This document shows, one piece after another, positions 3,690-11,529 of a DNA stretch of 64,000 nucleotides. The position numbers and the translations under genes are program-made. Below the pieces are notes generated by a model. The model was given only the letters and a program-made list of their open reading frames with translations, made no database searches and was not told the origin of the DNA. Source of the stretch: Escherichia coli (GTDB lineage Bacteria > Pseudomonadota > Gammaproteobacteria > Enterobacterales > Enterobacteriaceae); assembly GCF_009931435.1 (NCBI RefSeq), contig NZ_CP043414.1. The stretch is one strand, 5' to 3'. Each line of letters begins with the position of its first letter. Within the stretch, counting starts at the first letter, position 1.

Positions 3690-7402
<3,713 letters not shown>

Positions 7403-8079
7403 ATTCCTTCATTTTTTCAGCAGACTCAACGCATTTATTAGCCCCCTTCGCAACCAGCTCTTTTAGATAAGCCAATTGTCTGCCTGTCAATTCAGGGAAT
7501 TTTCTTTGCATCGAAAGCGGAATACTGTCCAAAACAGATGCCAGTTCTCCGGATAACCGGGACAGGGCAAAAATAGAGAAAGCTGTATCAATCACCTTAT
7601 GCTCTGCAACCTGGTTTTTTAACCGCTGAGCAATAGCCTGTTCTTCCGTCAGGTTAACCCTGGCCTGAAGTAGCCTTTCCTCAAGATCATTTTCACCACC
7701 TGAAGATTTCTGGTTTTGTTGACGTCGCTCGCGATCTATCTCCAGTACAGTTTTAACGTCATAGAAAACCTCTCTCCCCCGGCGCTCAACAGGAGGAACA
7801 CCCCATTTATCAAATGCCTGTACAGAGATACCGATGGAGGAGGCCATGTCGCTTTTATTCAATAAAAAGGCCACAGCCCCTCCATAAACCACCGGCAAAA
7901 AAGCAATACAACAACCACGTTTTTTGTAAAACCCTCTGATTTTACATGCTTTTTCGTATAAGAAAGATCATCAGGTTGTTGTGTTTATTTTTCTTTCTTA
8001 TTACTTATCAAGTAGATATATCAAACGATAAAACAACAACCATCACCTCAAAAAAACTCGTAAATAGCGAAAACCCGCG

Positions 8080-8091
8080 AGGTCGCCGCCC
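8080..8091 (-). other. cos: cosN cohesive-end site (12-nt lambda-type GGGCGGCGACCT on the minus strand)
   Basis: Plus strand reads aggtcgccgccc, preceded by gcgaaaacccgcg, which is the reverse complement of the lambda left-end sequence GGGCGGCGACCTCGCGGGTTTTCGC; lies ~185 bp upstream of Nu1. Coordinates +/-2 nt. Confidence 0.65.
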
Positions 8092-8496
8092 CGTGGCAGG
8101 CCACCCCACCGGAAGGACCCGCACAAATGAGAGTGATTATCACCATTGCTGATGAATAAATTGATGAAAATCATTGAAACGCCTTTCAGCAAGATAACGG
8201 CGACGGTCGTTGTTGCACTCCGTAACTCTGCGACTAAGGTTAAAAGCATGGCCCTCTTTTGCCACCGGCAAATCTTCAATGGATTTCCCCTGCCGGTTTT
8301 TTATTTTCGTCGATGCATAACATTGCATTTACATCAATAGCGGCTATTGTCATTAGTATGTTGCATCAATGCATGGGTGGTATTGGCGGTCTTCGCCGGC
8401 CGGTTCTGTGTAGCTGGACCGGTTTTTTATTTCTCACATTACAGCAGCCCCTTAGAGTGAAGGGCTGCTGTAATGCCGCAATCTTTTTTAACATGA

Positions 8497-8520
8497 AAAA
8501 GGCCGCAGAGCGGCCTTTAT
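8497..8520 (-). terminator. Rho-independent terminator (stem aggccgc/gcggcct, T-run on the minus strand)
   Basis: GC-rich inverted repeat followed on the minus strand by TTTTTCATGTTAAAAAA. A further hairpin cluster lies at 8400-8471. Confidence 0.5.
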
Positions 8521-8537
8521 GGTTTATTGACAATTGA

Positions 8538-8753
8538 TTAAGACGTGTGGCACTTATTGGCACACCAATAGCAACCATTCACCCGGGAATATCCTTTGGC
8601 CTTTGCCTCTGTTACCGCCGAAGAACAATCACTATAGTAACCAAGGTAATCGCGGTTAGCTACAGCAGGAAGATATGAACATTCCTCAGCATGCACCTCA
8701 TGATCGCCATTGCTCTGAGCATTTTTGTTCACGTAATAGTGTTTAAAAACCAT
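8538..8753 (-). CDS. Hypothetical small Cys/Tyr-rich protein (cargo between lysis cassette and cos)
   Basis: 71-aa ORF in an AT-rich stretch; no family recognised by eye. Confidence 0.3.
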   Translation of the reverse strand: MVFKHYYVNKNAQSNGDHEVHAEECSYLPAVANRDYLGYYSDCSSAVTEAKAKGYSRVNGCYWCANKCHTS

Positions 8754-8876
8754 TGTATAACTCCATGTTGACGCTGATATTCAGCATTAACATGCTATAT
8801 CACCAATTACACAAACATAAGCTTGTTATTTCAATTAGTTGATAACGATCACCACTGAACTTTGGCCTTGCGAAAT

Positions 8877-9086
8877 TCAAATGTTTTTCTGACTATTATT
8901 GGGCCGATAAACAGATATTATTTGAGCGTTTTGGTTCATTACATAAGCAATATCTCCATCTTTCAGAATGACTTTCCCATCCTTTCCCGATACGGCAATA
9001 CTCCGCTGCTCAGGATGATAGCCAATGCTACGCCCGCAATGGATCTCTTCCCCACCATTTTGAGACATGACTTTTACAGTTAACAT
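8877..9086 (-). CDS. Hypothetical small protein
   Basis: 69-aa ORF in an AT-rich stretch; unrecognised. Confidence 0.3.
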   Translation of the reverse strand: MLTVKVMSQNGGEEIHCGRSIGYHPEQRSIAVSGKDGKVILKDGDIAYVMNQNAQIISVYRPNNSQKNI

Positions 9087-9173
9087 TTTTCTGCTCCTAT
9101 TTAGATGCCCTTTCCATCCGGGCCACTGTTCAAAGTAAATTTAGATTCAACAATATTCTGCTCTTACAGGCGA

Positions 9174-9356
9174 TCAGTTCTGCATACACTGCCGAACACC
9201 GTCGACAATTTCACAGACCTGAGAAGCTGTATCGAAAAGCTGGCGCGCCTTATCCAGGCTGACGCATCCCACCAGGAAAAAAGGCACCAGTATCGCTACC
9301 AGTGCCCATTTCGCCGCCGTTCGCGGCATTCTGTGTGTCCAGTGTTTTCGCTTCAT
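9174..9356 (-). CDS. Putative small lipoprotein (signal peptide plus LVGC lipobox); possible spanin-like or exclusion lipoprotein
   Basis: MKRKHWTHRMPRTAAKWALVAILVPFFLVGC...: hydrophobic N-terminus followed by Cys; located downstream of the endolysin. Confidence 0.35.
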   Translation of the reverse strand: MKRKHWTHRMPRTAAKWALVAILVPFFLVGCVSLDKARQLFDTASQVCEIVDGVRQCMQN

Positions 9357-9360
9357 CTCA

Positions 9361-9588
9361 CTATCCACCAATCAATCCGGATAAGCTCAATACTCGCCAG
9401 GCGGTGGAAATGAAAATGGCAACCAACATTGCTGAAAATGAAAGGCCAACAACCACACAGAGAATTCGCGCCAGTTTTATAATGCTATCTGACATATTTA
9501 CCCCTGCCCCACTTACGATTTCACAGCAATGAGCAATTTTGCCATCCCATACAGCATCGGAGACACAGCGATACCGACCGCCACCCAC
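9361..9588 (-). CDS. Putative small membrane protein (single TM)
   Basis: ORF with hydrophobic stretch ILCVVVGLSFSAMLVAIFISTAW; start unclear. A further overlapping small hydrophobic ORF is at 9513-9716. Confidence 0.25.
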   Translation of the reverse strand: MGGGRYRCVSDAVWDGKIAHCCEIVSGAGVNMSDSIIKLARILCVVVGLSFSAMLVAIFISTAWRVLSLSGLIGG

Positions 9589-9855
9589 TTAATGGCAAAA
9601 GCCACCGCTCTGCTGATGTCATCAGTTACAGGCGCTTTCAATTCAAGGCCGTTTTTCATAGTCAACCTCAACAGAATTAGTTTATACTTCCTCATGTTCT
9701 CCTTTGCCTTACCCAAGGCCAGAAACAGAAAACCCCGGACTGTTACCGCAGCCGGGGTTTTTGCTATCTGATGCTATGCCCCTTACTTTCGCTCATCGTA
9801 GCCCCAGAAAAGAGCCTGCATGAGTTGAGGGTGTTCAGCACTTCAGTGTCAGTTT

Positions 9856-10401
9856 TTAAACCACCACGCGCTCTTTCATCCAGCCATAGACAAACGACTC
9901 ATTGGCCTCGCGTTTCTCTGCCAGCTCCAGATAACGCTCGCCCTGCGTACAGTTCAGGGCTTTCACCAGTACCAGTTCACCATCCCTGCTGCGATTTTTC
10001 AGATATGCCCGTAATGCATTAAGAGTACGCGGCCCGATGCGTCCATCAGCATCCATATCCGGATAGAGTTTCCCGCGCAGGTTGAAAACGTTCAGCCAGC
10101 GCTGAAGCATTCTGGACGCCACAGTTGGCCCCATGTTCACGCCCGTATCGCACAACTCTGCGGCAATATCCGGAGACAGGTCCTCAACCTGGTCGAATCG
10201 TGGTCCGTACCAGTAGTCCGCCTCGAGTATTTCCAGCGCCTGCCCACGCGTCAGGTCACGCATATCGCCCTGATAACCGTGTGCACGGGCAACTTTTTCA
10301 GTGATGCCCCATTTAGTCGGACCACCTTTATCATCCGGGTGATTGACGTAACCGCCCTCTTTTCCCAGAATTTCGTCAAAAATTTCATCTTTCGACTTCA
10401 T
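9856..10401 (-). CDS. Endolysin, glycoside hydrolase family 108-type with C-terminal peptidoglycan-binding region
   Basis: Motif EGGYVNHPDDKGGPTKWGIT, typical of the GH108 lysozyme N-terminus; position after the holin-like genes. Confidence 0.75.
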   Translation of the reverse strand: MKSKDEIFDEILGKEGGYVNHPDDKGGPTKWGITEKVARAHGYQGDMRDLTRGQALEILEADYWYGPRFDQVEDLSPDIAAELCDTGVNMGPTVASRMLQRWLNVFNLRGKLYPDMDADGRIGPRTLNALRAYLKNRSRDGELVLVKALNCTQGERYLELAEKREANESFVYGWMKERVVV

Positions 10402-10402
10402 A

Positions 10403-10693
10403 TCAGCGCCTTCGTAATACAAGGATTTTTGATACGTTCCCGCGTGCTCGTATCACCAGCACGCAGAACACCAGGTTAATCAGGACGACCAGCCAGTTAC
10501 CGGGTGGAAAGCGACCACACAGATAACAAAGCGGCGCAAAGGCATAAAGCAGCATCAGCAGCCAGGCCAGCCACGACATCAGCGGTTTATGTCTCGACTC
10601 ACCACGACGATAAAAAAAGAGCGTCAGCACGATAACCGTGCTTAACACCACATTCAGTAATCCGGGAAGGTTACTTAACATTACCGCCTCCAC
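10403..10693 (-). CDS. Small polytopic membrane protein (holin/antiholin-like)
   Basis: 96 aa, mostly hydrophobic helices; immediately upstream of the endolysin. Confidence 0.4.
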   Translation of the reverse strand: MEAVMLSNLPGLLNVVLSTVIVLTLFFYRRGESRHKPLMSWLAWLLMLLYAFAPLCYLCGRFPPGNWLVVLINLVFCVLVIRARGNVSKILVLRRR

Positions 10694-11060
10694 CCCGCAG
10701 ACGGGAGAACAGCCCGGATACCAGCGATGCGATATCCTGCTGGTGGATGAATGAGAGAATCTTCACCGACACCACCGATACCAGTACCGCACAAAGCGCG
10801 TCGAGAGATGTGCTGTGGAGATTCAATTTTTCGACCAGCCAGGACGCAAGGACATCCGCCCCCAGCACGCCAACAATGAACGACACCAGAAAATGCGCCG
10901 CCACACGCCAGACAGAAATCACCTGTGGCATCGTGGCCACAAACAACGCCCCGGCAAACGCGCCAAACACAATCCCGAAATCCGTCCCGGTAAACAGCCC
11001 GAATACCGTCGCCCCGCCGAGCGCCACAGCAGTGCTGGAACCGGATAAGGGTTCAGACAT
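10671..11060 (-). CDS. Putative holin (multi-TM, Gly/Ala-rich helices)
   Basis: MSEPLSGSSTAVALGGATVFGLFTGTDFGIVFGAFAGALFVATMP...; first gene of the lysis cassette downstream of Q. Confidence 0.45.
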   Translation of the reverse strand: MSEPLSGSSTAVALGGATVFGLFTGTDFGIVFGAFAGALFVATMPQVISVWRVAAHFLVSFIVGVLGADVLASWLVEKLNLHSTSLDALCAVLVSVVSVKILSFIHQQDIASLVSGLFSRLRGGGGNVK

Positions 11061-11193
11061 ATTTATTCTCCTGTAAATAAAAAGGACCATCAGCGGCCCC
11101 GTAACTGACATTTTATTAACGTTTGAAGATATGGATATTTATCAGGGTTTACCGTTTTCTGAACCCTGGATATGTTAAGCATTCAGCCCGCCA

Positions 11194-11529
11194 GTGGTGG
11201 GACGCTGGCTCATCATAGAGAAAGAGGGATGGCTGATTACCTCTGATCAGGGAAATCACATGCAGTTTTTACATAAAAGAATGCATTTAAATGCAGGAGA
11301 TACGGTAGTGGTTGACTGCTCTCATCAGTGCAATATTTTGCTGATGACAGATACAAACTTTAATAACTACCGCAACGCAAGAAGCTTTCATCATCACGGT
11401 GGTGGCGGTTTTTTTCAGAGATTACCGGCCCACCTTCATGTACCGCATTCAGGTTACTGGAATATTACAATTGATTTAGGAGGCGGAAGTGCAGCTATTC
11501 GGCACTCCATTTCCGTCATCCCAGCATAG
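11194..11529 (+). CDS. Hypothetical protein on the opposite strand to phage late transcription (moron-like unit with its own terminator)
   Basis: ORF (probable start at the internal ATG giving MQFLHKRMHLNAGD...) followed by hairpins at 11557-11596 and a terminator at 11778-11815. Confidence 0.3.
   Translation: MVGRWLIIEKEGWLITSDQGNHMQFLHKRMHLNAGDTVVVDCSHQCNILLMTDTNFNNYRNARSFHHHGGGGFFQRLPAHLHVPHSGYWNITIDLGGGSAAIRHSISVIPA

Follow-up and report, generated by a model that had tools for sequence, protein, structure and literature searches.

Background

The closest described counterparts of the locus considered here are the phage morons, a concept that is said to go back to Hendrix and colleagues and for which bor and lom of lambda and the extra genes of HK97 and HK022 reportedly serve as examples. 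Bor, a lipoprotein with a serum-resistance phenotype, is encoded on the opposite strand and has a known promoter. The present report concerns two short open reading frames (ORFs), ORF71 and ORF69, which encode products of 71 and 69 amino acids (aa) in a 64,000-nucleotide stretch of Escherichia coli DNA (assembly GCF_009931435.1, contig NZ_CP043414.1; hereafter the window). The window carries a lambda-like prophage transcribed on the minus strand, and both ORFs are located on this strand between the lysis genes and cos.

Like the lambda morons, ORF71 and ORF69 are optional, lie between conserved modules and occupy the same lysis-to-cos slot as bor; they have a lower GC content than their flanks and are found in only some of the related phages, and ORF71 has a terminator of its own. 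They differ from Bor in that their products are soluble and encoded on the strand of the late operon, have no Pfam match to Bor or to any other family, and can be assigned a promoter only in the case of ORF71, and there only a candidate. As read from the sequences, neither has a membrane segment, signal peptide, hydrophobic N-terminus or lipobox, and identity with lambda Bor was rejected on these grounds together with the absence of the Pfam match. The feature is ordinary moron-type cargo, i.e., it belongs to a known kind.

A second comparison is offered by the orphans of stress islands. Relatives of ORF71 adjoin YegP/DUF1508, DUF2188 and bPH-SHOCT proteins in gene arrays of Bacteroidota and in other phyla; they are likewise short, stand-alone, patchy in distribution and uncharacterised. 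However, the folds and families are different, and ORF71 is rich in Cys and His and shows far higher conservation, with an identity of about 60-70% across phyla.

Two conserved genes carried by few E. coli prophages

Chance alone produces many ORFs of this size (6 kb are overlapped by 74 that reach 30 aa or more), so that the presence of an ORF alone proves nothing. ORF71 and ORF69 are real protein-coding genes. This follows from their matches to PHROG families, their homologues (described below), the selective constraint on ORF71 and the Shine-Dalgarno sites (Table 1). ORF71 matches phrog_4298 with an E-value of 4.5e-32 (residues 3-70 on profile positions 1-69 of 70), and ORF69 matches phrog_3909 with an E-value of 9.4e-37 (residues 1-64 on profile positions 1-64 of 64); both families are listed as function unknown. 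Three alleles of ORF71 were aligned, namely that of the window, a second E. coli allele from the Stx2k prophage of STEC313 and that of Salmonella; the ratio of nonsynonymous to synonymous substitution rates (dN/dS) among them is 0.08-0.12, with synonymous sites near saturation. The second E. coli allele is 83% identical in DNA to that of the window, intact and unannotated (L098, 4001-4216). Other frames of the region were dismissed: a 70-aa ORF at 8366-8578 (minus strand) and the plus-strand ORFs antisense to ORF71 and ORF69 have no family match and either overlap the terminator hairpins or shadow real genes.

The initial annotation had described the two minus-strand ORFs, the 71-aa product being rich in Cys and Tyr, as cargo placed between the lysis cassette and cos in a slot equivalent to that of bor. 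We agree with this description, since the pair is absent from most related prophages. ORF71 was found in 53 of 5,426 complete E. coli genomes, 44 of them with a copy of at least 99% identity and 9 with the second allele, and ORF69 in 45. The 1.5 kb around the ORFs are 100% identical in prophages of several complete E. coli genomes. The whole arrangement occurs in 20 of the 5,426 genomes and parts of it in 4,173, mostly the cos-proximal part at 80-90% identity. The endolysins of the carrying prophages are different: GH108 here, M15 in E24377A and STEC313, and GH19 in Salmonella. Conservation across related prophages, which the annotation had asked for, was observed for both ORFs in prophages of E. 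coli, Salmonella and other Enterobacterales.

Accordingly, the marks of a moron can be listed as follows. The genes are found in some but not most related phages, at the junction of the lysis and cos modules. Their base composition deviates: the GC content of 8400-9086 is 41.5% compared with 49.5% in the window and about 53% in the terminase and endolysin genes, and it falls to 35% in the spacer between the ORFs (8754-8876), so that the segment is AT-rich, as had been stated, albeit modestly. ORF71 has its own terminator, and none was found for ORF69.

The exact ORF71 protein is present in GenBank and UniProt as an uncharacterised protein. In RefSeq there is an annotation gap, ORF71 being unannotated in most carrying E. 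coli genomes: of the 32 listed genomes whose copy is at least 99.5% identical, 28 have no feature at this place (e.g., NZ_CP047277.1 and NC_009801.1).

The ORF71 cassette

Homology among the three alleles begins at about position 8853, some 100 nucleotides (nt) upstream of the ORF71 ATG, and ends past the terminator; upstream of about 8853 the identity is 27-45%, which is unrelated flank. ORF71 is a self-contained cassette of about 360 bp, in which a leader of about 100 nt is followed by the ORF and then by an intrinsic terminator. Of the two genes, only ORF71 has the look of a self-contained moron.

The identity of the leader is slightly above that of third codon positions, which is 60-65% among the three alleles. 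The inverted repeat of the leader at 8771-8787 shows no compensatory change among them, and its hairpin structure is therefore putative. This repeat overlaps another one; the two (AGCAT-N4-ATGCT and ATGCTGA-N3-TCAGCGT, together 8771-8796) are found in the E. coli, Stx2k-prophage and Salmonella alleles and could represent alternative RNA hairpins or an operator.

The terminator cluster that had been noticed before cos consists of the canonical intrinsic terminator, for which the narrower limits 8498-8518 are given as well, and a second strong hairpin with a 17-bp stem (Table 1); the z-score of the fold of this region is -7.3. In the terminator stem the pairing is kept through compensatory changes (GGCCGC/GCGGCC versus GGCCAC/GTGGCC in the other alleles), and the hairpin can also be read as bidirectional. 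A search of Rfam over 7800-9400 produced only sub-threshold chance matches.

The ORF71 family and its predicted metal site

ORF71, a soluble mini-protein (68-71 aa), belongs to a large family that has no name and crosses phyla. Its homologues form 812 clusters at 90% identity, typically 68 aa long and 60-75% identical to the E. coli protein; those with a named source include Bacteroidota, Acidobacteriota and Vibrionaceae, among others, and a Pfam domain is absent from all. An exhaustive profile search yielded 1,891 clusters at 50% identity with E-values of at most 1e-3, including 887 with E-values of at most 1e-10, and the matching region was always the same stretch of about 68 aa. Fused domains in the longer relatives (up to 142 aa) were rejected, since the extensions look like mis-called starts in those inspected. 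Two exact peptide patterns alone detect relatives in 457 of 100,044 species genomes, mostly from Bacteroidota, which is a lower bound; the best 80 of these loci belong mostly to Flavobacterium, Chryseobacterium, Pedobacter and Chitinophagaceae.

Neither product could be assigned to a recognised family in the initial annotation, and the homology and structure searches lead to the same result. Neither ORF has a match in Pfam, NCBIfam or PADLOC-DB 2.0 (in PADLOC and Pfam, none at an E-value of at most 1). A Foldseek search with the ORF71 model against the Protein Data Bank (PDB) gave nothing at an E-value of at most 0.001, and a search of PDB sequences with the ORF71 profile yielded nothing above noise (PsaC). 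When 30 family members were scanned with Pfam at E-values of at most 10, the matches were limited to sub-threshold Fer4 and noise. The papers on DUF1508/YegP are uninformative concerning the ORF71 family. We believe that a strongly conserved family of this size, about 68 residues long, for which we found no Pfam or NCBIfam model, solved structure or paper, makes ORF71 a clean target for the definition of a new family and for biochemistry.

In an alignment of 271 family sequences, His21 is conserved in 99% and the set His21, Cys25, Cys61 and Cys64 in 98-99%, as are Gly60, Ala46 and Ala50; the N-terminal segment YYVNKNAQSNGDHEVH is also strongly conserved. The family has five conserved Cys and three conserved His in all. 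Cys43 and Cys68 covary: both are present in 243 sequences, neither in 7, and only one of them in 2 + 2 (Fisher 1e-10, not corrected for phylogeny). Members that lack this pair usually carry Cys65. The AlphaFold (AF2) model of ORF71 has a mean confidence score (pLDDT) of 92.5, with strands at 4-9, 18-22, 34-40 and 58-60 and a helix at 43-52, i.e., the order of elements is beta-beta-beta-alpha-beta. Considering the conservation of His21, Cys25, Cys61 and Cys64 and the covariation of Cys43 with Cys68, we presume that the protein folds around a single tetrahedral metal site, most likely zinc held by one His and three Cys, together with a Cys43-Cys68 contact, and that this small domain would stand alone.

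Another interpretation of the same residues is that ORF71 is a small iron-sulfur or thiol-redox protein, either an electron carrier or a sensor of redox state or electrophiles. The conserved tail G-C-x2-C-x3-C-H, the weak 4Fe-4S matches in a few members along with the profile match to PsaC, and the number of conserved ligands, which exceeds the need of one zinc site, are in its favour; C43 and C68 might form a redox-active disulfide, and the loss of the pair is accompanied by the gain of Cys65. However, the Fer4 matches are far below the curated cut-offs and concern only one or two of the 30 members, with E-values of 0.005 or weaker; the canonical motif C-x2-C-x2-C-x3-C-P is absent, the motif here being C-x2-C-x3-C-H, and a ferredoxin is not among the fold matches. 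Membership of ORF71 in the Fer4 family was rejected, and we consider the redox interpretation as a whole unlikely.

Genomic contexts of the ORF71 family

Among the 80 best species-genome loci there are 43, almost exclusively from Bacteroidota, in which the ORF71 relative is a member of a co-directional array of small genes located directly downstream of a pair that encodes a TPR-histidine kinase and a response regulator. The other members of the array include DUF1508/YegP, a 356-aa HSDR_N nuclease-like protein, bPH-SHOCT, DUF6804, TerB-like and TM2-like proteins and lipoproteins; their order and membership differ among Flavobacterium, Chryseobacterium and Pedobacter. We also observed in these arrays a Cys-rich lipoprotein, a 442-aa coiled-coil protein and a 298-aa lipoprotein (e.g., L057, 3300-12200; also L026, L044 and L064). 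An integron-like cassette structure was rejected, since the arrays contain no attC-like or other recurring repeats. A PADLOC scan of the array neighbours was negative except for one weak match, a TerB-like protein. The array looks like an undescribed island of small proteins controlled by a two-component system.

Elsewhere the relatives adjoin IS1595 transposases, or nSTAND3 and MobA. In Chitinophagaceae (L008-L011 and L033) a homologue lies between a CRISPR-Cas9 locus and a gene for a staphylococcal-nuclease-like protein (SNase); in this type II locus cas9-cas1-cas2 are followed by a variable gap, which probably holds the CRISPR array, and then by the homologue. Five unrelated loci, mostly from metagenome-assembled genomes and two of them from Rhodobacteraceae, have an orphan protein of 56-58 aa directly adjoining the homologue. 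The orphan begins with MATNPPKGDGHRNG and has the pattern MATNPPKGDGHRNGAV..RSQ...YVKRD..TGRFMDVK...PFKGVRKE (L007, 3812-3985, 57 aa; L035, L046, L056 and L068); it is possibly a partner of the ORF71 relatives.

Among phages, relatives are present in 16 phage records and in 93 viral contigs of IMG/VR. They are found beside the lysis genes in a Photobacterium prophage, in the direction of the integrase and repressor in Streptococcus Javan prophages, in counter-orientation in Staphylococcus phage 187, and in the accessory region of the Vibrio inovirus vB_VipaK. The carriers thus comprise prophages of both Gram-negative and Gram-positive hosts and a filamentous phage, and the gene often has an orientation of its own. 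The mostly cellular contexts and the recurrence as phage cargo fit a gene of cellular origin that was repeatedly acquired by mobile elements.

ORF69

Unlike the mostly cellular ORF71 family, that of ORF69 is restricted to phages. Only 29 homologous clusters were found, and the few with an organism name are all from Enterobacterales. A tblastn search detects ORF69 in 252 phage records: it occupies the same post-lysis slot in temperate phages of Klebsiella and Escherichia, and its further carriers are virulent T5-like phages, where it lies in the tRNA/accessory region, and phages about 145 kb in size. The N-terminus, MLTVKV..GGEE.H.G, is invariant. The AF2 model (pLDDT of 90) is all-beta with seven strands. 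It weakly resembles the T4 antitoxin Dmd and AcrIF9, which are beta-sandwich inhibitors, at a fold level that is common for small beta proteins; sequence similarity to either is absent. The ORF69 profile against PDB sequences gave only noise (aprataxin FHA and Hsp20). For ORF69 neither a terminator nor a recognisable promoter of its own was found, and it is therefore read as a part of the late operon. Its presence in phages only, including virulent ones, speaks for a role that is useful to the infecting phage.

Association of the two genes

In E. coli, ORF69 precedes ORF71 by 123 nt and the two are almost always together: at least 30 accessions are in both lists of matches, and this order is probably present in about 44 E. 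coli genomes. The order is the same in the Salmonella prophage, though both proteins have diverged. The opposite order was observed in 25 prophage loci of IMG/VR, where an ORF69 homologue lies 28-72 nt downstream of ORF71; these loci carry other endolysin and terminase genes, and an intrinsic terminator directly follows ORF71, between the two genes (locus L147). About 14 comparable prophage loci of the Enterobacterales type have ORF71 and no ORF69, and the 252 phage records with ORF69 have no entry in common with the 16 that contain an ORF71 relative. The association is real, facultative and asymmetric; it may reflect the shared history of an insertion hot spot or a functional relation. Since many of the paired loci are related, they correspond to few independent events. 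A tight operon of the type II toxin-antitoxin kind was rejected in view of the 123-nt leader here, the terminator in the other order and the wide occurrence of each gene alone.

Considering that the adjacency with a phage-only mini-protein is kept in both orders, it is tempting to propose a functional link, which can be tested. Under this proposal ORF71 would be an effector acting in the lysogen (defence or growth arrest) and ORF69 its antidote or counter-defence, which the prophage makes in the late transcript only and which virulent phages carry alone. The asymmetry (ORF69 alone in phages, the virulent ones included), the terminator that separates ORF69 from ORF71 in the 71-then-69 order, the neighbours of ORF71 relatives (a CRISPR-Cas9 array with SNase, nSTAND3, Mrr_N and IS1595) and the likeness of ORF69 to Dmd and AcrIF9, weak as it is, are all compatible with it. 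If it were true, the insulated ORF71 cassette would block superinfecting phages or arrest growth and ORF69 would neutralise it; the ORF71 family would then be a single-protein effector of stress or immunity across phyla, controlled by a two-component system in Bacteroidota. On the other hand, neither gene has a PADLOC match, the relatives of ORF71 are mostly in the Bacteroidota island, where no relative of ORF69 was found, ORF71 occurs without ORF69 in the prophage loci counted above, and the paired loci come from related phages. We regard such a pair as rather improbable.

Proposed roles and remaining alternatives

Our preferred explanation is that ORF71 and ORF69 are two optional accessory genes placed in the lysis-to-cos slot, each with its own role. 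ORF71 would have been captured from a cellular gene pool of the stress-island type and would be carried as cargo for lysogenic conversion, its product being a small module that binds a conserved component of the cell. A function of ORF71 in stress or to the benefit of the host is proposed tentatively, with somewhat less than even confidence. ORF69 would serve the phage in lytic growth as a small inhibitor-like protein involved in host take-over or counter-defence; we put this forward with a little more reserve. Such suggestions of mechanism are made with low confidence for both proteins, and the explanation in its entirety, roles included, is given an even chance.

Some points weigh against it. 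A literature search with PHROG identifiers, accessions and peptide motifs found no relevant paper for either family (the sole match was a chance peptide in a Weissella proteomics table), and no member of either family has a demonstrated function. The weak Fer4 matches to the C-x2-C-x3-C-H tail and the gain of Cys65 make an iron-sulfur cluster or another set of ligands possible. The candidate promoter TTGAAA-17-TGTAAT is poorly conserved in the other two alleles, a strict sigma-70 scan found no promoter on the gene strand, and both genes may simply belong to the late operon. Finally, the adjacency in both orders is unexplained if the two are independent cargo.

The simplest form of the late-operon objection is that both are ordinary late genes for the timing of lysis or for DNA packaging. 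They do share the strand of the lysis and head genes and lie between the small ORFs that follow the endolysin and cos, ORF69 has no signals of its own, and in the Stx2k prophage ORF71 is found between the endolysin and a lipoprotein gene. Nevertheless, about 1% of E. coli genomes carry the genes, in contrast to the widespread cos-proximal sequence next to them, the relatives of ORF71 are mostly non-phage, those of ORF69 are in the tRNA/accessory region of T5-like phages, and neither protein has a membrane segment or signal peptide; this makes such a role quite improbable.

A distant relationship of ORF71 to the N-terminal zinc domain of Ada (PF02805; PDB 1u8b and 1eyf), with binding to the DNA backbone or acceptance of alkyl groups, is still less probable. 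Both are small domains of a beta-sheet and a helix, and the ligands presumably follow strand 2 and the helix at x3 and x2 spacings; by eye, the elements have the same order, and the spacing of H-x3-C...C-x2-C is similar to that of C38-x3-C42...C69-x2-C72. However, a comparison by hhalign with a 32-sequence Ada_Zn_binding alignment gave a match probability of 0.2%, PF02805 was unmatched by the 30 members even at an E-value of at most 10, and the four-Cys site is not present: His21 is at the position that appears to answer to the nucleophilic Cys38. ORF71 is not basic (seven K/R versus seven D/E), has an additional conserved Cys pair and a conserved N-K-N-A-Q-S-N-G-D loop, and stands alone without AraC or methyltransferase domains. 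Membership in Ada_Zn_binding was rejected; the profile comparison being negative, we treat the resemblance as a weak analogy.

That either ORF, or both, arose by chance as a reading frame in AT-rich spacer DNA, as the abundance of short ORFs and the absence of ORF71 from PGAP calls in most RefSeq genomes might suggest, is effectively refuted by the conservation data (full-length homologues by the hundred with 55-75% identity across phyla, the low dN/dS of ORF71 even near synonymous saturation, invariant N-termini and Shine-Dalgarno sites) and by confident structure models of both proteins, and its probability is negligible.

Surrounding features of the prophage

Table 1. Positions of the two genes, their signals and the neighbouring features in the window
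Feature	Position	Strand	Comment
ORF71, 71-aa Cys/His/Tyr-rich mini-protein, PHROG 4298	8538-8753	-	Ends ...NGCYWCANKCHTS
ORF69, 69-aa all-beta mini-protein, PHROG 3909	8877-9086	-	RefSeq (PGAP) hypothetical protein WP_000958716.1
Shine-Dalgarno GGAG, 7 nt before the ORF71 ATG	8761-8764	-	Read from sequence; invariant in three alleles
Shine-Dalgarno AGGAG, 7 nt before the ORF69 ATG	9094-9098	-	Read from sequence
Conserved leader / regulatory region of the ORF71 cassette	8754-8853	-	68-72% identity among three alleles
Inverted repeat ATGCTGA-N3-TCAGCGT in the leader (RNA hairpin or operator)	8771-8787	-	7 bp, in all three alleles
Candidate sigma-70-like promoter TTGAAA-17 nt-TGTAAT	8806-8834	-	Read from sequence; weak (G at -10 position 2)
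Intrinsic terminator, 9-bp GC-rich stem, loop of 3, U-run	8493-8518	-	20 nt after the ORF71 stop; scan and fold
Second strong hairpin, 17-bp stem	8436-8476	-	No U-run on this strand; fold
Two holins (PF16931 and PF05449)	10403-11111		Lysis genes, upstream of both ORFs
GH108 endolysin with PG_binding_3 domain	9856-10422		Lysis genes, upstream of both ORFs
Three small ORFs after the endolysin: phrog_1115, phrog_4906, phrog_7528	9174-9716	-
cosN (AGGTCGCCGCCC; reverse complement is the lambda 12-nt cohesive end)	8080-8091	-	Sequence
Nu1 (PF07471)	7368-7898		After cos
Large terminase	5471-7402		After Nu1

The location of cos next to the two genes, as had been supposed, is supported by matches of the lambda type over 8058-8142; since the lambda left end, in reverse complement, is identical to 8062-8091, cosN was placed as given in Table 1. 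The three small ORFs that follow the endolysin have no match to any Pfam spanin family and are probably stand-ins for the spanin genes; the last of them, phrog_7528, encodes a lipoprotein whose lipobox reads LVGC. The Stx2k prophage instead has the lipoprotein gene downstream of ORF71 (L098, 3617-3829).

The stretch 8142-8440, from the second hairpin to cos, is 86-97% conserved in phages phi458, cdtI and phiSTEC1575-Stx2k and makes up the right end of their genomes. It includes a 52-aa plus-strand ORF (about 8164-8322), which is annotated in one RefSeq genome; this stretch is probably packaging-signal DNA and not a gene. Just upstream of the holins, a plus-strand gene at about 11260-11529 runs counter to the late operon. 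In an identical genome (L001, 7361-7630) it has the RefSeq label DUF1883 domain-containing protein, and it looks like another moron.

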